Assembly (NCBI GenBank): GCA_016188915.1
Contig: JACPGU010000002.1
Coordinates: forward strand, 11,388-75,387
Length of the DNA: 64,000 nt
From: Candidatus Microgenomates bacterium
GTDB taxonomy: Bacteria; Patescibacteriota; JACPGU01
Reading direction: 5' to 3'
Positions 2,605 through 58,325 of the stretch are shown in pieces. Position 1 is the first letter of the stretch. Each line of letters opens with the position of its first letter. The notes under the pieces are model-generated. The model worked only from the letters and a program-made list of their open reading frames with translations, had not been told where the DNA came from and ran no database searches. The position numbers and the translations under genes are program-made.

Positions 2605-4986
2605 TCAAACACCCACCTCTGCGTACAGCTCTTCCTGAAATTCAAAAAACATAGCTCGGATCTTTTCCACTCCGCCGAGGGCTGTCGCCGCATCAGCTAT
2701 AGCCTGATACTTGAGATTGAGAAGTTTTGGTAGTTTTTCCTCATCCAGCTCATCAACACCGTTATCAATATATTTATCAATAACAAAACTCAAGAATTCT
2801 TTTTCTTTGTCATCTATCCCCTTAAATATAAGAGGTCTTGCTCTGATAACTCTCTCCTCTCTTGTAATCGGTTTTATCGCAAAAGAAACATAGGAGAGAA
2901 CATCAAATAGGTCGGAATCTTCGGCATTGACCAATCTTTGCAGACCTTCTAGCTCTTCCTTCCCATATCCCTGATCTGCGATTTTCTCAAGGAATGCTTT
3001 TCTTGTTACGGGATTTGACCAGATCTTCCTTAGCTCTTCTTCACTTTTGAAAAACTCTGGCAATTTGCCAAACATGTTTTGCAGGAATTCTTCGGCAGAT
3101 ATGGGCTTGCCGTCGGCACTCCAAAAAGAAGTTGATACCATATGCTGGATTTCCCTTTCTTTCCCATCGCGTAATTTTATTTTCAGTTTCTGTCTTGGCA
3201 CATTTTCGCATTCACATGGATCTTTACTGCATTCAGGACAAAGATTGGGAACCCTTTCGCATATACAAGGATTCTCGCCACACACAGGGCACACTTCTTT
3301 TGGCTTCCTTTCGCAAATACAAGGATCTTCTCCGCATTTCGGACAGATCTCCTCGACGGGTTCGCCGTCCCACTCGGGGTCAGAAAAGTGATGATATGCT
3401 CCGACAAAATCTAGAATAGTAAAATACTCTTTACCGTCAAAAAGTCGTGTCCCACGACCAACGATCTGCTTGAATTCAATCATGGAGTTGACTGGACGCA
3501 TCAGAACGATGTTGCGGATGTTGCGGGCGTCAACACCAGTAGATAGTTTCTGTGAAGTAGTTAAGATGGTCGGAATAGTCTTCTCGTTATCTTGAAAATC
3601 TCGCAAATACTGTTCGCCTCTTGTGCCATCATTTGCAGTAACTCTAACGCAATAATTTGGGTTCGCACTTTTCTTAAATTGATTTATCAGGTCTCTCACG
3701 GCGGCTGCGTGTTCCTGCGTAGCGCAAAAAACAATCGTCTTCTGGCTCTGATCAATCTCGTCCAGCATTATCCTCACGCGCTTTTCTTCTCTCTCCTTGA
3801 TCTTGATAATCTTGTTGAAATCTTCCTCCTTGTATATCTTGCCAATCTCCACTTCTCCTTCGACAACTTCGTCGTCAGAAGTATAAACATATTCATCAAG
3901 AGTTGTTTGGATTCGCTTGACCTTGAATGGCGTCAAAAATCCGTCATTGATTCCCTCCTTCAGAGAATAGGTATAAACTGGCTCACCAAAATATTTGTAT
4001 GTATCAATATTATCTCTCCTTTTTGGCGTTGCTGTCAGGCCCAGTTGAACAGCGGGAGAGAAATAATCCAAAATATCACGCCAGTTTGATTCGTCGTTTG
4101 CTCCGCCTCGGTGACACTCGTCAATTATGATGAAATCAAAAAAGTCCTTTGGATATTCGCCAAAATATGGCGCGCCACCAGGACCACTCATAAATGTTTG
4201 AAATATTGTAAAAAATATACTGCCATTTGTTGGCACTCCACCCTTCTTGCGAATATCGAGTGGGCTGATACGAACTAGCGCATTTTGGTCAAACGGAGAA
4301 AACGAGTTGAACGCCTGATTTGCCAAAATATTTCGATCAGTAAGAAAAAGTATTCTGGGTTGCCTCGCCCCATCTCGCTTTAAGTTCCAACGAGAATGAA
4401 AGAGCTTCCAAGCAATCTGAAAAGCGATGAATGTCTTTCCCGTTCCGGTAGCGAGAGTTAGAAGAATTCTCTGCTTGTTCTCGGCAACAGCATCAAGAGT
4501 GTTGTTGATAGCATTCTCCTGATAGTATCGCAAGATCTTCGTACCACCAATATCTTCAAAAGGAACTTGCGCAAACTTATTTTTCCATTCATTTTGATCA
4601 GAGAAAGCTTTGTTCCATAATTCTTCTGGCGTTGGGAAGCTATCAACCAGAGTTTCTTTCCCACTTTTCATCTCAATCTCATAGATCTCCTTGCCATTGG
4701 TGGCATAGGTGTATTCTGTTTGCAGTTTCTTAGCATAATCTTTTGCCTGCGCCACACCTTCAGAATAAGAAATGGTTTCCGCCTTTGCTTCAACCACAGC
4801 CAGCTTCTGATTTTTGTAAACTAAAACATAGTCAGCAATTTCTTTTTTGCCTCTTATCCCTCCAGGCTGGATGCGCCCTTCGGTAATATGATGTTCGCGC
4901 AGAATCTTTGACCCCCCTGTCTCACCCCATCCGCTTTCTTTCAATTTCGGGTCAATATATTCCGCTCTTGTCTCTGCTTCGTTCAT
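2605..4986 (-). CDS. hsdR: Type I restriction enzyme R subunit HsdR (short form, 793 aa) with C-terminal Cys-rich tandem repeats
   Basis: N-terminal MNEAETRAEYIDPKL; helicase motifs TLATGTGKT and IIIDECHRG; TATPKR; ~3195-3345 encodes 3 repeats of CPxCGExPCICER. Confidence 0.9.
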   Translation of the reverse strand: MNEAETRAEYIDPKLKESGWGETGGSKILREHHITEGRIQPGGIRGKKEIADYVLVYKNQKLAVVEAKAETISYSEGVAQAKDYAKKLQTEYTYATNGKEIYEIEMKSGKETLVDSFPTPEELWNKAFSDQNEWKNKFAQVPFEDIGGTKILRYYQENAINNTLDAVAENKQRILLTLATGTGKTFIAFQIAWKLFHSRWNLKRDGARQPRILFLTDRNILANQAFNSFSPFDQNALVRISPLDIRKKGGVPTNGSIFFTIFQTFMSGPGGAPYFGEYPKDFFDFIIIDECHRGGANDESNWRDILDYFSPAVQLGLTATPKRRDNIDTYKYFGEPVYTYSLKEGINDGFLTPFKVKRIQTTLDEYVYTSDDEVVEGEVEIGKIYKEEDFNKIIKIKEREEKRVRIMLDEIDQSQKTIVFCATQEHAAAVRDLINQFKKSANPNYCVRVTANDGTRGEQYLRDFQDNEKTIPTILTTSQKLSTGVDARNIRNIVLMRPVNSMIEFKQIVGRGTRLFDGKEYFTILDFVGAYHHFSDPEWDGEPVEEICPKCGEDPCICERKPKEVCPVCGENPCICERVPNLCPECSKDPCECENVPRQKLKIKLRDGKEREIQHMVSTSFWSADGKPISAEEFLQNMFGKLPEFFKSEEELRKIWSNPVTRKAFLEKIADQGYGKEELEGLQRLVNAEDSDLFDVLSYVSFAIKPITREERVIRARPLIFKGIDDKEKEFLSFVIDKYIDNGVDELDEEKLPKLLNLKYQAIADAATALGGVEKIRAMFFEFQEELYAEVGV

Positions 4987-49177: not shown

Positions 49178-51082
49178 TTATTTTCTGTGCTCTACTGCGT
49201 CTTCTGGCAGCTCAGAAAGAAATCGTGACGGCAGATTGTTTTGAAAACCTCCATAAAGCAGACGGGTGCGAGCATAAAGTAAAAAAAGTTTTTTGCGCGC
49301 TCTGGTGATACCCACATAGCAAAGTCGGCGCTCTTCCTCTATCTCGTGATCTTCATTCATCGCTTGTCCAGAGGGGAAGATACTCTCTTCCATTCCAACA
49401 ATAAAAACATAATCAAATTCTAATCCTTTGGCTGAATGCAAGGTCAGCAAAGACACCGCGTCTTTTTGGAAATCAGCGTTGTCTAGATTGGTGATGAGCG
49501 CAATGTCTTGCAGGAAAGCGGTGAGCGACTCCATCGGCCCGAGATTATCAAATCTTTGTGCCACGGAAAGCAATTCCCGAATATTCTCCCACCTGCCGTC
49601 CCCTTCTTTCGTTCCGTCCAAAATCATTTCTTTATATCCAGACATTATCGCAACTGCGGTAATGAGTTCCGAAACATTGGTCTCCGCCGCTACATTGCAT
49701 ATTCTTTCGTAAAGATTTTTAAAATTGCCGAGAGATTTTTTACTGCGAGTATCTAGTGGACCCAAGAAATCATCGGTCAGGTCATGAAGATTGGTAAGTT
49801 TTTTGAGATGAGCAAAAGCTGTTTCACCAATGCCTCTGGCTGGCTTATTGATAATCCTTGAGAGCGACACGAAATCCGATGGATTTTGGATGATACGCAG
49901 ATAGGCGATAATGTCTTTGACTTCCATTCTTTCGTAAAAACTAGTCCCTCCTACAATACGATATGGGACAGAGGAATTAAGGAACGCTTCTTCCAGCGCA
50001 CGACTCTGCGCATGCGTCCGGTAAAAAACTACAAAATCGTTGAAAGATGCGTCGCTTTTTCTTCTGACATTTTTTATTTGATCACAGACAAAAATTCCTT
50101 CATCTCTTTCGTTGGTCGCTTCAAAAATACCAATCGCTTCCCCCTCGTTGTTTTTCGTCCAAAGATCTTTGCTCTTTCGCTGACGATTGTTCTCTATCAG
50201 CTTCTGCGCGGCGAGCAATATCTTTTGCGTTGAGCGATAATTTTCTTCCAATTTGAAAATTTTGGTGTCCGGATAATCTTTTTCAAAGTTTAGGATATTA
50301 CGAATATCCGCGCCCCTGAAATTATAAATAGATTGATCGGGATCGCCCACCACGCAGATATTGTTTTTTTCATTGACTAAAAGTTTGACGAGAAGATATT
50401 GCGCGCGGTTAGTATCTTGATATTCATCTACTAATATATAGTGAAAAACTCTCTGATATTTAGCGCGAATTTCTGGAAAGTTCTGCAATATTTCTATCGT
50501 CTTGCCAATCAGGTCGTCAAAATCCAAAGCGTTACTAGCTCGCAATTTTTTCTGATACATCGCGTAGACTTCGGCTACTTTTTCGTCAAAAAAAGTATTG
50601 GCGTAATTTTGGGCAAAATCAATCGGCGAAATAAATTCATTTTTAATACCGGAAATTCTGGAAGCAAAGGCGCGCGGCTTGAACATTTTTTCGTCACTGC
50701 CCAATTCTCTCAAACATTCCTTGATTAGATCCTGCTGATCAGAACTGTCATATATAGTAAAGGAACGATCGTAGCCGATGTGATGAATCTCGCGACGCAG
50801 GATCCTCACGCAAATAGAGTGAAAAGTGCCGATCCACATCGCGCCGATAGGATTGCCCAACAATTTTTCCACTCTCTCCTTCATCTCCCCCGCCGCTTTG
50901 TTAGTGAAAGTAACAGCCAAGATTGATTCTGACTTGATGCCTTGCGCGATAAGGTGGGCGATACGATAGGTAATCACTCTTGTTTTGCCCGATCCGGCGC
51001 CGGCCAAAATCAAAATAGGTCCGTCGATAGTCTCGACGGCTTTTTGTTGTTCTGGATTGAGACTGTCTTGTTTTATTTTCAT
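49178..51082 (-). CDS. pcrA: ATP-dependent DNA helicase PcrA/UvrD (short, 634 aa)
   Basis: LNPEQQKAV, AGAGSGKTRVIT, VDEYQDTN, C-terminal VGITRAR. Confidence 0.9.
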   Translation of the reverse strand: MKIKQDSLNPEQQKAVETIDGPILILAGAGSGKTRVITYRIAHLIAQGIKSESILAVTFTNKAAGEMKERVEKLLGNPIGAMWIGTFHSICVRILRREIHHIGYDRSFTIYDSSDQQDLIKECLRELGSDEKMFKPRAFASRISGIKNEFISPIDFAQNYANTFFDEKVAEVYAMYQKKLRASNALDFDDLIGKTIEILQNFPEIRAKYQRVFHYILVDEYQDTNRAQYLLVKLLVNEKNNICVVGDPDQSIYNFRGADIRNILNFEKDYPDTKIFKLEENYRSTQKILLAAQKLIENNRQRKSKDLWTKNNEGEAIGIFEATNERDEGIFVCDQIKNVRRKSDASFNDFVVFYRTHAQSRALEEAFLNSSVPYRIVGGTSFYERMEVKDIIAYLRIIQNPSDFVSLSRIINKPARGIGETAFAHLKKLTNLHDLTDDFLGPLDTRSKKSLGNFKNLYERICNVAAETNVSELITAVAIMSGYKEMILDGTKEGDGRWENIRELLSVAQRFDNLGPMESLTAFLQDIALITNLDNADFQKDAVSLLTLHSAKGLEFDYVFIVGMEESIFPSGQAMNEDHEIEEERRLCYVGITRARKKLFLLYARTRLLYGGFQNNLPSRFLSELPEDAVEHRK

Positions 51083-52086
51083 TTCAAAGAAAAATAATCA
51101 TAAAGCGTCTTTGATATATTACGAATAGCTGGTATGGCTTCTTCATATACAGCTTCGTTCGTCATAACAACACAGATAAAATTTCCTTTAGGGGAAAATA
51201 TAATACCAGCATCGCTATATACTCCTTCCCAGGTACCTATCTTGTGAGACACCTTTGCTTCTTTGGGCAAATAAAATGGTATCCTGTCTTCAGAAACAGT
51301 GCCTTGCATTGCCTTAATCATTTCTTCATAAGAAGCCTCATCTAAAAATTCTTTCCTATATAAAGATTTGAAAAATTTACCGACATCAAAAGCCGTTGTA
51401 TCGTTGGTATCAAAATCTGTCCCTTCTAAAAATATAGATCTATCAAATTCATTAATTGCCTTAATTCCTAAAAAGCGTGTCATCATAGAAAAAGCAATAT
51501 TATCACTTTGATTGAGCATTCTCCATGTCAAATCCTTAGCATAGTATTGGCCTTCGTCATCTACTGACGACAAAGAACTACCTTGGTCTACCCTGTCCTC
51601 TCCTAATATTTCTATGGAACTGCTGGCTATACTTTTGTCGCTGGAATATTTTTTGTAAAAAGTTCCAGCCACAAAAAGCTTGGCTAGACTTGCCGCGGTC
51701 ATTTTCCTGTCTTGATTTAACCCCACTTCTTCTCCATTAGAAAAATCATAAGCATAAATGCTATATTCTCCTTTTAAAGGAGATACCATATTTACCAATT
51801 CATTGTAGAGCTGTTCTTTGGTGGTAATCAATATTTTGTCGCTTGGGTCATATTTATAATCTGCCAATATCTTTTTTTCAATAGTCTGGTTAAAAGAACT
51901 GGCCGGTAGGGTGTATTTTACCGACCAAAATGGGATACTGGCTACCCACAAAACTATTATTAGACCTATCAAAGATATCAAAAAAATAAATCCATCAAAA
52001 TGAACCAAAGAATCCCTGCCCCCAATCTGGCGCTTTCTTTGAGATTTGAATATAGCATCTATTTTTGGAGATCCTATCCTTCCCAT
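51079..52086 (-). CDS. Membrane-anchored class A beta-lactamase-like serine hydrolase
   Basis: N-terminal TM; SxxK (ASLAKLF), SDN (NQSDNIAF), KTG-like HKIGT. Confidence 0.55.
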   Translation of the reverse strand: MGRIGSPKIDAIFKSQRKRQIGGRDSLVHFDGFIFLISLIGLIIVLWVASIPFWSVKYTLPASSFNQTIEKKILADYKYDPSDKILITTKEQLYNELVNMVSPLKGEYSIYAYDFSNGEEVGLNQDRKMTAASLAKLFVAGTFYKKYSSDKSIASSSIEILGEDRVDQGSSLSSVDDEGQYYAKDLTWRMLNQSDNIAFSMMTRFLGIKAINEFDRSIFLEGTDFDTNDTTAFDVGKFFKSLYRKEFLDEASYEEMIKAMQGTVSEDRIPFYLPKEAKVSHKIGTWEGVYSDAGIIFSPKGNFICVVMTNEAVYEEAIPAIRNISKTLYDYFSLK

Positions 52087-52143
52087 ACTTCGTATTATAC
52101 TACAAACAAAACACCTCTACTGGTGATTTTGTTTGTGTCGCTC

Positions 52144-52353
52144 AAATAGCCACAAGGAGAATCGCTTGTCCCGACTTCTTGCTTTGCAAGAACGTCGGGG
52201 AACTCCTTTCCTAATGCTTTCTAAATAGTTCTTCTTAGTTGAAACAGTAAATAGCCCCAAGGAGAATCGCTTGTCCCGACTTCTTGCTTTGCAAGAACGT
52301 CGGGGAACTCCTTTCCTAATGCTTTCTAAATAGTTCTTCTTAGTTGAAACAGT
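52144..52353. repeat. Two tandem 105-bp repeats, each carrying a copy of the tRNA-Glu 3' end (tagccMcaaggagaatcg) and a 13-bp-stem hairpin
   Basis: Units 52144-52248 and 52249-52353 nearly identical; phase continues into the tRNA at 52354. Confidence 0.85.
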
Positions 52354-52356
52354 AAA

Positions 52357-52428
52357 TAGCCCCAAGGAGAATCGAACTCCTCTTTTCAGCTTGAGAAGCT
52401 GACGTCCTAACCGATAGACGATGGGGCC
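52357..52428 (-). tRNA. tRNA-Glu (anticodon CTC)
   Basis: Acceptor GGCCCCA/TGGGGCT; D-stem GTCT/GGAC; anticodon stem TCAGC-TTCTCAA-GCTGA; T-arm AGGAG-TTCGATT-CTCCT. Confidence 0.8.
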
Positions 52429-52612
52429 ACCGATATAAATTAAAAGATAAAAGGAAAGAGCGAAAAATGATGAAGTGACTTTGCCACGATATATTAAAAA
52501 TTACCAAGAGATGGGGTGGTCATATTTTAGCACAAATCATATCTTTAGCGCTAACTTAAAAGAGCCACACACAGAGCGCGACCCCTTTAACCCCTCCTCA
52601 AAACACTATTTT

Positions 52613-53000: not shown

Positions 53001-54236
53001 TTATTGATAGCTATAAACATCCACTAGCTCACCGCTGGCATTGCGCAAATAGGCTGGTTCACCGATTCTGTCCCAGACAGGAGCCGTATCAGTAAGAAAA
53101 CTAAAACCACCTTTATTGGTATTTATTCTAATGGTCTGTCCTGGTTGAATAAGAAAACCTGGAAAAGTAAAAACATGGCCATCGGAATCTCTTACTGTCC
53201 ATCCGGCCAGGTCTTTTTCTCCGTCTCCTGTGTTGCGAACTTCTACATATTCATCTTGACCCTCACCATTGATGTCCAGACTATATAGAATATAACTAAC
53301 AATAATCTTGGATGGGTAGATGATTATTGGCGGCGGATCATTATTGCCCCCATCATTATCGCCTCCACCATCGCTTCCATTGCCATTACCATTGCCATTA
53401 TCGCCTCCGCTGTTATCGCCTCCTCCATTATTCCCATTACCACCACCTCCACCATTATCATTCTCATTGTTCCCGCTGCCATTGCTACCATCATCATTAC
53501 CGCTATCGCTATCATCGTTATTATAGTTTACCGAGATAGATTCGCTAGTAGAGCCATCTTCGTCAGAAGCTACTATATCAATAGTATTATCTCCCGGATC
53601 CAATATTATTTCCGCCTCAAAATGGCCATCGTCATCAACTGGGGTATCTTGTCCATCTATCTCTACCGTTGCTCCAGGATCGGTATCGCCAATGACAGTA
53701 ATATTAGGATCAATGACTACGCTTTCATCATTTGGCGACGATATCACCAACTCTGGACCTGGTCCTACTATATATTCTATTGTCTCATCAATGATGGTTG
53801 CTTCTGTCCCATCGGATCTTTCCTCTCTGACTAGTAAATCATTTTCGCCCGGGTTAAGATCGATGACAAATGAAAATGAACCATCGGGGTTGATAATTAG
53901 ATTGTCGGCGTCTATCAATAGCCCATCTAAAAATATTTTTATTTTAGAATCTGAGTTACCTAATTGTCCATTTATATCCAAGGGAGAATCATAAACTACT
54001 CTATTCTCCGGATCAAAGGCTTGTCGGCCACGGAAAGGATTAAACCAAATGAGTCCCAACAGAAGGAGTAGTGGCAAAAGGCAGCCGAAGAAGAAGGGGA
54101 TGATAGGCAAACGCCTTTTATCTTTTCCCTCCTCTTTTTTCTTGCGACGCTTTTCTACCAATTCTTCCAGATTTTTTATTTCTTCTTTTGGCATTCTATT
54201 TTTGTTTGCTACGCTATTAATAACAATATAGCACAA
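53001..54236 (-). CDS. Membrane-anchored surface protein with Gly/Asn/Asp-rich linker and C-terminal lamin-tail domain (LTD)
   Basis: N-terminal TM; LTD-like EYVEVRNTGDGEKDLAGWTVRDSDGHVFTFPGFLIQPGQTIRINT. Confidence 0.55.
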   Translation of the reverse strand: MCYIVINSVANKNRMPKEEIKNLEELVEKRRKKKEEGKDKRRLPIIPFFFGCLLPLLLLLGLIWFNPFRGRQAFDPENRVVYDSPLDINGQLGNSDSKIKIFLDGLLIDADNLIINPDGSFSFVIDLNPGENDLLVREERSDGTEATIIDETIEYIVGPGPELVISSPNDESVVIDPNITVIGDTDPGATVEIDGQDTPVDDDGHFEAEIILDPGDNTIDIVASDEDGSTSESISVNYNNDDSDSGNDDGSNGSGNNENDNGGGGGNGNNGGGDNSGGDNGNGNGNGSDGGGDNDGGNNDPPPIIIYPSKIIVSYILYSLDINGEGQDEYVEVRNTGDGEKDLAGWTVRDSDGHVFTFPGFLIQPGQTIRINTNKGGFSFLTDTAPVWDRIGEPAYLRNASGELVDVYSYQ

Positions 54237-54557: not shown

Positions 54558-57500
54558 TTACTCAACAATATTATCAATATTGTCCACTTTTTTAGGATTA
54601 TTGGCATCAAAGTCTTCTGCCCTCTCCCAGTCTATAGGTGTTACATTTACAACCGTTCCACTGTCTTCATCAAATTCAATAATAGTATCTTTTATTCTCC
54701 ATCTTTTATCAATTTTTAATTTATCTCTAAATAAATCTGCCAGTTCTTTATTCTTTTCAGAAACATCTTGAATTATCGCATTTATCTTCTCATCGCTAAA
54801 TTTACCAGATTCCCTTAAATGCTTTTCAAATTTTCTTCCAGAAATTCCTTCTACTTTTTTCATAAGAAGATAGCTACCATCAACTTCTTTTTTCCCAGAC
54901 ATAAAACCAACCGGTTCTGCCGTAGGCAATCCCACCTTTTTCGCCGATATTAATATAGAAAATTCTTTTCTAGATTCTTTGGCTTTGCGAAGTTCTATTT
55001 TTTTTGCTACTATTTCTGTTCCATCGCTTAATTCAAAAGAGATAATTTCCTCATCTGGATATTCTCCTTCGCCTTTGCCACCCTTTAGCAAAGTACCACT
55101 TTCAGCAAAAAACTTTTTTGGGTTTTCAATAAATTCTTTTGGTAATAAATCCAAGTACTCCTGTCTTATCCTTATGGAATAATTTTCAGAATCAACGCCG
55201 ACATTACCAGATGGTTCATGATACAGTTTTTCTTGCAACCAATAGTGGCGAGCAATAGCTTGCTTTATCATCATATAGTAGAACTGTTCTTCGGGGCTTG
55301 TTGGTTGTGCGATATGGTGAATTTTTCCAGTTTCTTCGTCAATAATTAACCCCTCGGCTGTATTTTCTGTTTTGGCATTATGCTCAATATATTCAATAAT
55401 TTCCGATCGAGCATTTTCTGGGATACCTTTAACACGTCTATGTACACTTGGAGCAGAGAGCAATCTAATCCTTCTCTCAATATCTTCGTCATCAAAATCC
55501 ATCACTCTCATTATTTGTTCAGGTATTGTGCCTGTATATCCAGTATCATAAAAAAGAGGGTCAGCATCGGGGGTAATTCTTTCTTGTTCAAGAAATTGAC
55601 GCTTAGTATCATAATCAAGATTGTCTCTAAAATATCTAGGGTATACAAGATATTGAGGATTTATTTCAATTATGTCCCCCATTTTTTGCAACTTTTTTCT
55701 GCCCTCAGGTCCAAGCTTTTTGCGACGCGCTATATCCTGCGCCCATCTTCCTATCCATGCATAAACACCATCTCTTCCAAGAAACACTTCGGTCGGATAA
55801 CGACCTGTTTCACGAAGATTATCAAATTCCTCATATAGCTTATCGTATAGGGGAATGTCCACTTCGTGAACTTTAATATATTTTTTAAATCCCTCCTCCA
55901 AAACACCGTCCATATTATTTAGCGATTCTCGTAAATCAGAAATGCGATTTAAGTCGCCTCCTATACTTTGCACAAGGTATCTTATTGCAAAATATTGAAG
56001 ATTATTTGATAAATCAAAGAATGGAGTCATTTTTACAGCCAACGATTCTGGACTAGCCAAGGCTTTTTTATCATCATCATTAATTTTAGAATTGGATTGA
56101 AATCTTGTAATAAATTTTTCGTAAGATTCTTTTATTTTTTCATTTATTTTTGCGAGCAGTGGCTCTATTTCAGATTGATTAATGTTCAGATCTTTCATCC
56201 TTCTCGGATTTATTTTTCCTCTCATTATATCAGTTAGGGCGTCAGTTAAAACTGCTTGTTGTTTATTAAAAACCCAAGGATTATTTTCATAAGGGTTACT
56301 TTCCCTGAAACCCTCACTTCCATGACTATAGCTATAATCATGTTCTCCATCGCCAAATTGCGCTCCGTGTTCAGCTAATGTTTTATTCGCTTTTTCAATA
56401 ACATCCTGCACCCATGGTTCGTTCTTCCACGAGAAATTCTCTATGCCATTAATAAACTTATTCGCTACAGAATAATGCGAAACAGCGACAAGCATTCCTT
56501 TACCCGCCCATTCTTTATCATGGTAGTTGCCTGCGTTCTCCAAAAAATAGTCAGCTAAATCATCATTGGATTCTAAGTTATCCAGAATCATCTCTATTGC
56601 TTTTTCGGAGGTTAAGGGCATAGGAAGGAGTGTATCAAAATCTTTTCCAAGATGCTTAACAAACGAAATTAAATTGTTAGGATTTATTTTAGACGCACAT
56701 TCTTCATCGGATTGTCGCATGTCTGATAATTGAAATACTCCTTCTGACAAATTAAATGACTTTTTTATTTCTAAGGCCTCGCTAATTTCACCGGCAGATG
56801 CTTTATTGAGCACAGCCTTTTTCGCAGCTTCTTGGATCTCGGGTAGCTTAATGACTTCTACGAGAAGATAATTGAATGCACTTTTTATTCTGTTCGTAGT
56901 ATTGATATCGCCAGACGACAGCTTATCTATTAACACTTTTTTTGCGGCTTCCTGGATTATCAAATCTGAGATATTAAATATCTTTAGTATTTTTTCGACA
57001 TTTTGAGTGTCAACATTGGCTAATGAATCCATTAGGCTTCCTTTTATAGCTTCTTTGGTTTCCTCAAGATCTGGGTTTTTTTCAATTTCCTCTTTTGAAT
57101 ATAGGATATAACCATTAGATAGGTCCTCAAGTATTTTATTTTTTATTGCTTTTTGAATTATGTCCCCCGATACATTTAATTCATTCTTTATTCTAATTGC
57201 CCAAGAGAATGCGCGTTTCTCCACCATCAAAATTATCTCTTTCTTTGCAGCTTCTTGAAATTCAGGTGAGTCAGCAAAATCACGGGGAATATTTAATGCC
57301 TTTATTATTTCAAAGTAATGACGAACATCTTCAGTATAATAGCCACCATGACCTAGCTTTCTTATTAATCCTTCTCTTACAGCTTCCTGGACTTCAGGTA
57401 AATTACTAAAGCCCTCGGGAAGACCAAGCTCGTTTTTTATTTTAATGACGTCATAGACATCGCCATTACTCACTTTGCGATATAAACCTTCCTCTAAGGC

Positions 57501-58325
57501 TTTTTGAAATTCAGGTGAACTGTCAAAATCTTCTTGAGCGATAAATTCGTTTTTTAGCTCAATAGCGTTATGGACATTCCCGAATGCCATCTCCTTAATT
57601 ATTTTTTTCTTAGCGGCCTCTCGGACTTCAGGTGAGTTAACTATATCGTCGGGTAGATCTAATTTTTTATTAATCTCAATAGCTCTATATGGCTCTCCAA
57701 AATATGAGAAACTTTCAACAATTGTTTCCTTTGCGACTTCCAAAACTTCAGATGAGCTAATAAAGCTATCTGGTAAGTGAAGTCTCTTTATTATCTCAAT
57801 GGCTTTATCGGGGAGACCATGCGATATGTAGAATATCGCCCCCTTCTTTGCAGCTTCCTGAATTGCAGGTGAATTGATAAAATCATCGTCAGGCAAACCC
57901 AATGCTTTTTGTATTTCGAAAATATCATCTATACGATAACTAAAGATATCTTCGAATAGTTTTGAAGCGCGATAATTTATAGCTTTTTGAACTTCGGGTG
58001 AATTAACTATCTCATTTAGCTGGTGGGCGCTAAGGCCACAGTTATTTTTAATACGCAATAGTTCACTCATACCGTCCCTAGACACCGTGTACATCAAGGT
58101 CTCTATTATGCGTTTTCTCGTACTTTTCTGTTCTGGCGTTAAAATAATTTCTTCTCCATCTTCCTTTTTTTCTTTTGGGCCAAAAATAGAATCAACATGT
58201 TTCTGGGCTTGTTCTTGAACTTTGTCAAATTCTTCAGCAGTCGGTTTTTCACCAGCAAGCCTCTGCATTTCAGCAGCTTCAGCTTGAGCGCGAATTGGAT
58301 CGTATAAATTTGGGTTTTCTGACAT
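54558..58325 (-). CDS. Very large (1255 aa) hypothetical protein with ~10-12 N-terminal tandem ~36-aa helical repeats (SPExQEAAKK...AIEIKNEL.LP..F)
   Basis: Repeats read from the translation; no known catalytic motif recognised. Confidence 0.55.
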   Translation of the reverse strand: MSENPNLYDPIRAQAEAAEMQRLAGEKPTAEEFDKVQEQAQKHVDSIFGPKEKKEDGEEIILTPEQKSTRKRIIETLMYTVSRDGMSELLRIKNNCGLSAHQLNEIVNSPEVQKAINYRASKLFEDIFSYRIDDIFEIQKALGLPDDDFINSPAIQEAAKKGAIFYISHGLPDKAIEIIKRLHLPDSFISSSEVLEVAKETIVESFSYFGEPYRAIEINKKLDLPDDIVNSPEVREAAKKKIIKEMAFGNVHNAIELKNEFIAQEDFDSSPEFQKALEEGLYRKVSNGDVYDVIKIKNELGLPEGFSNLPEVQEAVREGLIRKLGHGGYYTEDVRHYFEIIKALNIPRDFADSPEFQEAAKKEIILMVEKRAFSWAIRIKNELNVSGDIIQKAIKNKILEDLSNGYILYSKEEIEKNPDLEETKEAIKGSLMDSLANVDTQNVEKILKIFNISDLIIQEAAKKVLIDKLSSGDINTTNRIKSAFNYLLVEVIKLPEIQEAAKKAVLNKASAGEISEALEIKKSFNLSEGVFQLSDMRQSDEECASKINPNNLISFVKHLGKDFDTLLPMPLTSEKAIEMILDNLESNDDLADYFLENAGNYHDKEWAGKGMLVAVSHYSVANKFINGIENFSWKNEPWVQDVIEKANKTLAEHGAQFGDGEHDYSYSHGSEGFRESNPYENNPWVFNKQQAVLTDALTDIMRGKINPRRMKDLNINQSEIEPLLAKINEKIKESYEKFITRFQSNSKINDDDKKALASPESLAVKMTPFFDLSNNLQYFAIRYLVQSIGGDLNRISDLRESLNNMDGVLEEGFKKYIKVHEVDIPLYDKLYEEFDNLRETGRYPTEVFLGRDGVYAWIGRWAQDIARRKKLGPEGRKKLQKMGDIIEINPQYLVYPRYFRDNLDYDTKRQFLEQERITPDADPLFYDTGYTGTIPEQIMRVMDFDDEDIERRIRLLSAPSVHRRVKGIPENARSEIIEYIEHNAKTENTAEGLIIDEETGKIHHIAQPTSPEEQFYYMMIKQAIARHYWLQEKLYHEPSGNVGVDSENYSIRIRQEYLDLLPKEFIENPKKFFAESGTLLKGGKGEGEYPDEEIISFELSDGTEIVAKKIELRKAKESRKEFSILISAKKVGLPTAEPVGFMSGKKEVDGSYLLMKKVEGISGRKFEKHLRESGKFSDEKINAIIQDVSEKNKELADLFRDKLKIDKRWRIKDTIIEFDEDSGTVVNVTPIDWERAEDFDANNPKKVDNIDNIVE

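Follow-up and report, generated by a model that had tools for sequence, protein, structure and literature searches.

We analysed a stretch of 64,000 nucleotides from contig JACPGU010000002.1 of a Candidatus Microgenomates bacterium (the window), in which the tRNA-Glu(CUC) gene is followed by two 105-bp tandem units, each of them closed by a copy of the 3' end of the tRNA. The most likely reading, to which we give a probability of roughly 0.6, is that this array is a tandemly duplicated remnant of the tRNA-Glu's own 3' region lying in the trailer, which arose once, was recently doubled, is probably co-transcribed with the tRNA and probably has little or no function. It would then be a small, recent and lineage-specific duplication beside a tRNA gene, and mainly an annotation matter. 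The point possibly worth the attention of specialists is the architecture of a split T-arm, which is common to this array from the candidate phyla radiation (CPR) and to the RtT repeats at the tyrT locus of E. coli.

Since the tRNA gene is on the minus strand, positions downstream of it have lower coordinates. It was called by ARAGORN and by Rfam (RF00005, 59.5 bits), and its minimum free energy (MFE) fold is a cloverleaf. In the orientation of the tRNA, the layout is tRNA[1-55]-A-B-A-B-A', and it is composed of the following parts.

52357-52428 by Rfam (52356-52429 by ARAGORN), minus strand: tRNA-Glu(CUC) gene.
52354-52374, minus strand: A1, the 21-nt block CGATTCTCCTTGGGGCTATTT, tRNA positions 56-73 (T-loop C56 to discriminator A73) and three trailer nucleotides; template of the copies.
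52270-52353, minus strand: B1, the 84-bp spacer of unit 1, with an AT-rich 5' part, then AGGAGTTC, the hairpin and ACAAG.
52305-52312, minus strand: AGGAGTTC in unit 1, the same as the T-stem 5' half and U54-U55-C56 of the tRNA.
52275-52304, minus strand: hairpin of unit 1, CCCGAC-G-TTCTTGC AAA GCAAGAA GTCGGG, 13 bp with one bulge.
52249-52269, minus strand: A2, an exact 21-nt copy of the tRNA 3' end.
52165-52248, minus strand: B2, the 84-bp spacer of unit 2, 100% identical to B1.
52200-52207, minus strand: AGGAGTTC in unit 2.
52170-52199, minus strand: hairpin of unit 2.
52144-52164, minus strand: A', the distal 21-nt copy, in which one G is changed to T (TTGTGG); the sequence beyond it is unique.

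Tandem Repeats Finder (TRF) returned a period of 105 bp with 2.2 copies and 99% matches (score 455) over 52144-52374. The 18-mer CGATTCTCCTTGGGGCTA occurred three times against 0.01 expected by chance: at 52357-52374 within the tRNA, at 52252-52269 and, with one mismatch, at 52147-52164. An earlier note on this DNA had described a tRNA-Glu followed by two tandem units that re-copy its 3' end, and ARAGORN, Rfam and TRF confirmed it. The recurrence of the last ~18 nt at a spacing of 105 bp also held, but the copied identity block is really 21 nt long, since the TTT after the discriminator was copied too, and the distal copy carries a mismatch. The intervening units had been called identical, as the two spacers indeed are. 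The minus strand of the tRNA, the T-stem 5' half in each unit and the parallel with the E. coli tyrT RtT repeats had not been mentioned.

The gene does not encode CCA, and the top of its acceptor stem is a G1-U72 wobble. The same wobble was observed in the tRNA-Glu genes of the comparison loci L003 (2831-2902), L010 (816-888) and L011 (4785-4859) as in the window gene (52357-52428), and the CPR members of this set likewise do not encode CCA.

The 8 nt of AGGAGTTC are exactly those that precede A in the tRNA-Glu, and the chance of finding them in shuffled B was ~0.0013. Because this 8-mer recurs in B, the unit was read as a split T-arm: the T-arm is interrupted between C56 and G57 by a hairpin, and the acceptor 3' strand follows. 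B runs to ...AAGGAGTTC, then comes an insert of 36 nt, and this insert is directly joined to GATTCTCC of the next A block. The acceptor 5' strand, the D-arm and the anticodon arm are all missing from the units.

The hairpin in each unit is real, with a 13-bp stem as the earlier note had stated, but it also contains one bulged base that was not mentioned there; the loop is a 3-nt AAA, the folding free energy (dG) is -19.8 kcal/mol and z is -3.9. In the MFE folds, a T-stem-like helix is predicted to close the hairpin, with AAGGAG or the neighbouring AGGA pairing with CUCCUU, and the GGGGCUA tail stays mostly unpaired. The fold of the whole region gave z = -5.5.

Several other identities of the hairpin and the unit were considered and rejected. 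No terminator-like site was called within the units on either strand; on the minus strand, the sequence directly 3' of the hairpin is ACAAGCGAUUC, and since no U-run follows, the unit hairpin does not look like an intrinsic terminator. A dispersed palindromic repeat of the repetitive extragenic palindrome (REP) or miniature inverted-repeat transposable element (MITE) type was dismissed, because a search of the 64-kb window allowing up to 3 mismatches, and also blastn-short, returned the two array copies of the hairpin and no other. An archaeal-type intron in the T-loop was rejected by inspection, as the stem is a continuous 13-bp helix and not a 4-bp helix between 3-nt bulges; it is also disfavoured by the missing of most of the tRNA body and by the bacterial nature of the organism. 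The 3' half of a split tRNA does not fit either, for there is no complementary GC-rich leader and trailer pair and the tRNA portion is just 18 nt.

The array ends shortly before three further features.

52102-52136, minus strand: AU-rich hairpin with an A-rich 5' arm and a U-rich 3' arm, a candidate terminator for the tRNA-Glu transcription unit, dG -15.4, z = -5.0.
52094-52099, minus strand: TATAAT, candidate near-leaderless promoter, separated by 7 nt from the ATG of the following gene.
51079-52086, minus strand: class A beta-lactamase-like serine hydrolase (Beta-lactamase2 family), context gene.

Because the AU-rich terminator-like hairpin and the TATAAT of the next gene both come after the array, the array probably belongs to the transcription unit of tRNA-Glu, ahead of the terminator, and not to the hydrolase mRNA, as judged from these motifs. 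The AU-rich hairpin is a better candidate for the terminator than the unit hairpin. In L003 a hairpin of similar AU-rich style follows tRNA-Glu, and in L012 one follows tRNA-Trp. In L003/L004, tRNA-Glu(UUC) is followed by an AU-rich hairpin with a U-run, TGGTATAAT and the ATG of a homologous hydrolase, with a spacer of 98 bp and no repeat.

Around the start of the hydrolase gene (52084-52099), TATAAT stands 7 nt before the ATG and a Shine-Dalgarno sequence is absent, and in the L003 homologue (2988-3003) TGGTATAAT stands at about equal distance, which suggests that the hydrolase mRNA may be conserved as leaderless or near-leaderless. Each unit also includes a weak sigma-70-like site on the plus strand (52239-52267 and 52344-52372; TTGAAA, 17 nt, GAGAAT; 9/12 matches), whose -10 element lies within the copied tRNA 3' end and which would read antisense to the array and the tRNA. 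These sites are probably due to chance.

Considering the layout above, we infer the following course of events. A single A-B-A' would have arisen once, and its source would be either a decayed second copy of tRNA-Glu whose T-loop had gained an insert or the scar left by an integration targeted at the T-loop. The 21-nt A copies would then have allowed a second unit to be added, through replication slippage or through unequal recombination, and because the units are identical this doubling is read as recent. The array would be transcribed with the tRNA-Glu up to the AU-rich hairpin at 52102-52136. Since the gene does not encode CCA, 3' maturation of the tRNA-Glu is presumably an RNase Z-type cut after A73, as is usual for CCA-less tRNA genes, and it would free the trailer. 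If the T-stem-like helix between AAGGAG or AGGA and CUCCUU closes the hairpin, a unit might persist as a fairly stable by-product of ~105 nt, by analogy with the rtT RNA of E. coli. Little or no function is probable for it, because the array is lineage-specific and the relatives do not have it. As for the suggestion in the earlier note of a slippage duplication of a tRNA trailer or terminator, the trailer part fits, given the identical units and the A-B-A-B-A' order, but the terminator part is not supported, given a unit hairpin without a U-run.

The distribution of the unit is narrow. No further copy of B was found in the window or in any fetched comparison locus. A search for a T-arm of this sequence split by 26-46 nt in 185,579 species-representative genomes (the source genome not among them) gave one match, on an Acidobacteriota contig where the tRNA is absent, and this match was put down to chance. 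The A block had 0 matches in viral contigs, blastn against phage records matched solely tRNA-Glu genes, and the B-A (hairpin/A) junction had 0 matches in the metagenomes of the Joint Genome Institute (JGI). A metagenome scan with the tRNA-Glu 3' half recovered three loci, 0/3 with the array, and two CPR contigs with an identical tRNA-Glu(CUC) 3' half (L010, L012) have no array. Exact-protein look-ups of the flanking genes for other strains returned one 1.3-kb Logan contig, and the 71-aa and 411-aa open reading frames (ORFs) near the array were not on record. On the units, Rfam matched the tRNA alone, both at gathering thresholds and at E <= 10, and weak RNAI, patAB and bxd matches in the array region were regarded as noise.

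This distribution bears on whether the units are selected. They might be an rtT-like small RNA or cis element that shares a transcript with tRNA-Glu and is cut free at its tRNA-like 3' ends by the enzymes of tRNA processing; as such they could serve as decoy or sponge for tRNA-binding factors or modulate the maturation of tRNA-Glu. The architecture is that of E. coli RtT, where one unit is annotated as a stable RNA ending at the copied CCA; the hairpin and its closing helix are strongly predicted (z of the whole region as above), the array stands within an apparent transcription unit ahead of a terminator-like hairpin, and partial tRNA copies with GC-rich hairpins occur beside another CPR tRNA. 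Against it, no homologous unit turned up in the species genomes, JGI metagenomes, viral contigs or phage records, the relatives are without the array, and there are no homologues for covariation. Even in E. coli, RtT is missing from ~700 of 5,426 genomes and its function is still termed unknown (bioRxiv 10.1101/2024.07.17.603846). We therefore regard a selected RNA as unlikely.

The earlier note had also proposed serial attL/attR remnants, that is, tiny integrative or cis-mobilizable elements inserted successively into the T-loop of tRNA-Glu, each bringing a copy of the tRNA 3' end. An integrase insertion classically leaves just such a block, which here begins at C56 in the T-loop, a canonical crossover site, and extends beyond the 3' end. 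The sole mutation is in the distal copy, as expected of a displaced original 3' end, and the flank of that copy, TTTGAG, weakly resembles the trailer of the tRNA-Glu of a relative. Precedents are known: the attB of phage Ms6 is in a T-loop (PMC1762012), tandem islands in the ssrA T-loop are bounded by 20-bp repeats, some of them without integrases (PMC3146451), and integration-derived tRNA fragments are widespread (PMC9897764). As in att remnants at tRNA and tmRNA genes generally, the repeat here runs from the T-loop to or past the 3' end, several copies stand after one gene and the distal one is diverged.

In known cases, however, the repeats flank kilobases of cargo that usually includes an integrase, and the serial islands are mutually different, whereas in the window the spacers are identical, non-coding and 84 bp, and the flanks are housekeeping genes with no integrase there. 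Spacers of 100% identity indicate one event that was duplicated and not serial independent insertions, and 84 bp leave no coding capacity. The integrase that the earlier note had suggested looking for did not appear: among the Pfam-searched neighbours there was no integrase or recombinase. The order hydrolase-UvrD-RsmA-Nramp downstream of the array is conserved in L005, so there is no island downstream of tRNA-Glu. No attP-like match was seen with A in viral contigs, in phage records, or with the B-A junction in metagenomes. Finally, the hairpin separates AGGAGTTC from A, while the two are contiguous at a normal attR. Serial att remnants are thus not supported as an account of the array and are improbable, though in the duplicated remnant that we prefer, the first A-B-A' unit could still go back to an old integration scar.

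The number of units was considered separately, because the source is a short-read metagenome-assembled genome (MAG). The second unit may be due to duplication of 105 bp by the assembler, or the two units may be the assembler's rendering of a G/T polymorphism within the population. The array of 231 bp is longer than a typical read, and the independent Logan contig L001 (SRR12113420) breaks within the repeat and so does not give the unit number. The break itself is informative, as L001 has its start exactly 30 nt before the G>T position of A'. In a Logan graph, which we take to be built with k=31, a break at this place is presumably expected if the hairpin-A and hairpin-A' junctions are both in the reads. 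The break point thus indicates that both hairpin-A(G) and hairpin-A'(T) were in the reads, which argues against an assembly artefact. It supports at least two hairpin-bearing units in the reads of SRR12113420, a population polymorphism being less likely. Moreover, tandem repeats are usually collapsed and not created by assemblers, and the array lies in the middle of the 64-kb window, away from the contig end. We consider an artefact very unlikely.

Some points weigh against the reading of a once-formed, recently doubled trailer remnant. The unit count was taken from a short-read MAG and may be wrong. The rest of B aligned with the 5' part of tRNA-Glu no better than chance (p = 0.18), so that for B outside the 8-mer an origin as a decayed tRNA copy is undemonstrated; the whole unit as a decayed tRNA-Glu was rejected for having no significance beyond the 8-mer. 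A 21-nt repeat is short for RecA-dependent recombination. The relatives without the array (L003/L004 and L010/L012) are distant, the nearest hydrolase homologues being at most 46% identical, and no close strain was among the sequences compared. Co-transcription, processing and stability of the units are predictions. Lastly, the RtT covariance model RF00391 gave no match in 52050-52480 even at E <= 10, and the likeness to E. coli RtT is therefore architectural only.

One ORF runs through the array.

52117-52365, minus strand: 82-aa ORF through the array, spurious.

Its frame is open across the units because 105 bp is a multiple of three (35 codons). The sole start codon, a TTG, falls within the acceptor stem of the tRNA, and the frame offers no ATG or GTG start. 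No homologue was found among 5.8 billion proteins, where the ORF itself is not on record, and no Pfam match was obtained; used as a translated proxy for homologous units, it found nothing. We thus agree with the earlier note, which had called it spurious. If the ORF did encode a small basic protein with an internal repeat, similar to the "protamine-like" Tpr of E. coli RtT, this would agree with a frame that is open through both units and Arg/Lys-rich over the hairpin, and in E. coli the 29-aa tpr coding sequence is annotated over the equivalent hairpin region of the RtT unit. Given the lack of homologues and of a Pfam match, the start inside the tRNA and the divisibility of the unit by three, such a protein is hardly credible.

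The genes downstream of the array encode the hydrolase, UvrD/PcrA, RsmA and Nramp (Pfam: Beta-lactamase2, UvrD, RrnaAD, Nramp). Upstream are the 71-aa ORF (no Pfam match), a protein with Lamin Tail Domain (LTD) and Ig domains, and a 1255-aa protein (no Pfam match). The L005 contig extends just 431 bp (1-431) beyond the hydrolase gene on its upstream side, where no tRNA was called. The 411-aa protein (53001-54236, minus strand) contains Glucodextranase-B/Ig-like and Lamin Tail domains, and tandem repeats of 6, 12 and 15 bp within its ORF (53337-53431) form a Gly/Asn/Asp-rich low-complexity linker. The 1255-aa ORF (54558-58325, minus strand) contains many copies of a ~35-40-aa motif ending ...SPE(V/F)QEAAKK...

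With a script, all 25 tRNAs in the sequences compared were searched downstream for copies of their own 3' ends. Such copies were found in three cases: the window tRNA-Glu, the E. coli positive control and the tRNA-Trp of L010/L012. In the last, the CPR locus L012 (4102-4345; the same in L010, 572-815), tRNA-Trp(CCA) is followed by a terminator-like hairpin and then by GC-rich hairpins. A stretch there resembles the anticodon-arm, variable and T-stem 5' side of tRNA-Trp (weakly, p = 0.08), and an exact 32-nt copy, made of the T-loop-to-CCA block of tRNA-Trp and 13 trailer nt, lies 26 nt before tRNA-Glu(CUC). It shares with the window array the CPR host, a trailer position, GC-rich hairpins in an AT-rich genome, a T-stem-5'-side-like stretch and an exact copy from T-loop to 3' end. 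Unlike the array, it is single and not tandem, its 32 nt include CCA and 13 trailer nt, and its T-loop is shortened and not interrupted; it has no sequence similarity to the window unit. The tRNA-Trp locus is an independent partial tRNA copy and shows that the phenomenon recurs in CPR. Partial tRNA copies beside tRNA genes are common, in agreement with PMC9897764. The high-GC metagenome contig L011 carries, at 4661-4859 on its minus strand, a tRNA-Glu(UUC) and ~100 nt further on an orphan 3' fragment of tRNA-Glu whose T-arm differs (GAGAGGAGTTCGATTCTCCTTGGGGCTA); this fragment is probably an integration remnant or a tRNA pseudogene.

For the comparison with RtT, the tyrT-tyrV locus of E. coli K-12 (NC_000913.3, 1285800-1287700; L013) was analysed directly. 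TRF found a repeat of 178 bp with 3.1 copies, and RF00391 matched four units with 133-138 bits, one of them within the tyrT-tyrV spacer.

911-1042, 1089-1220, 1267-1398 and 1564-1695 of L013: E. coli RtT units by RF00391.

Every unit closes with AATCCTTCCCCCACCACCA, the 19 nt that end tRNA-Tyr, starting within the T-loop, and the 3' end of the annotated rttR RNA is exactly the first copied CCA. The units hold CTTCGA(CC)AAGGTTCGA, which is the variable arm, the T-stem 5' half and the first T-loop bases (9-mer chance ~0.0005); a GC-rich hairpin insert of ~70 nt follows AAGGTTCGA, and then comes the 3' block. Over its first 92 nt, the unit can be aligned with the 5' part of tRNA-Tyr (p = 0.009). 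From this alignment, the E. coli units look like decayed copies of tRNA-Tyr with an insert in the T-loop. In the Rfam RtT consensus, GGGGAAGG pairs with the copied CCUUCCCC around internal hairpins and the CCACCA tail is free. The number of units per E. coli genome ranges from 1 to 9 (median 2), and the genomes without a match were counted above; such arrays therefore expand, contract and are dispensable. One tyrT repeat unit encodes rttR (PMC3318445), and a stable RNA from E. coli RtT is known from Bosl and Kersten 1991, as cited in PMC3318445.

The window array and E. coli RtT are alike in the following respects. A tRNA gene is directly followed, on its own strand, by tandem units; every unit closes with the 3'-terminal ~19-21 nt of the tRNA, from inside the T-loop; the T-stem 5' half and the first T-loop bases are parted from the 3' block by a GC-rich hairpin insert; an upstream complement is predicted to pair with the copied T-stem 3' half, enclosing the hairpin or hairpins and leaving the acceptor 3' strand single-stranded; and an Arg-rich ORF covers the hairpin. 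They differ in that there is no similarity between them in sequence or by covariance model. The unit is 105 bp with 2.2 copies in the window and 178 bp with 3.1 copies in E. coli, the tRNA is Glu without encoded CCA as against Tyr, and the insert has 36 nt and one hairpin as against ~70 nt and two hairpins. The E. coli unit aligns with the D-, anticodon- and variable-arm part of its own tRNA, while the window unit does not (p values as above).

The split-T-arm units at E. coli tRNA-Tyr, CPR tRNA-Glu and, more loosely, CPR tRNA-Trp might be a recurrent, convergent class of by-product RNAs of tRNA operons, made and trimmed by the tRNA maturation machinery and retained for titrating or reporting on tRNA-binding enzymes. 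We offer this as a speculation with a low chance of being right. If true, the window would hold the first non-enterobacterial, non-homologous example, and would suggest a general route from tRNA-gene remnants to small RNAs in a minimal-genome bacterium.

For the duplicated trailer remnant that we favour, the practical value is in the pitfalls that such an array sets: a false 82-aa ORF, broken k-mer assemblies and misreading as the att site of a mobile element. The wider interest is that the layout of E. coli tyrT RtT is reproduced without homology in a very distant phylum, when the origin and function of RtT are unclear after decades. That unrelated lineages share this architecture hints that it originates at the T-loop by a common mechanism, or that remnants in tRNA transcripts meet a common fate, and the window array provides a second system for asking these questions. 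The array resembles RtT but is not a member of the RtT family; it is a non-homologous variant of the tRNA-linked repeats with partial tRNA copies, which are best exemplified by E. coli RtT.

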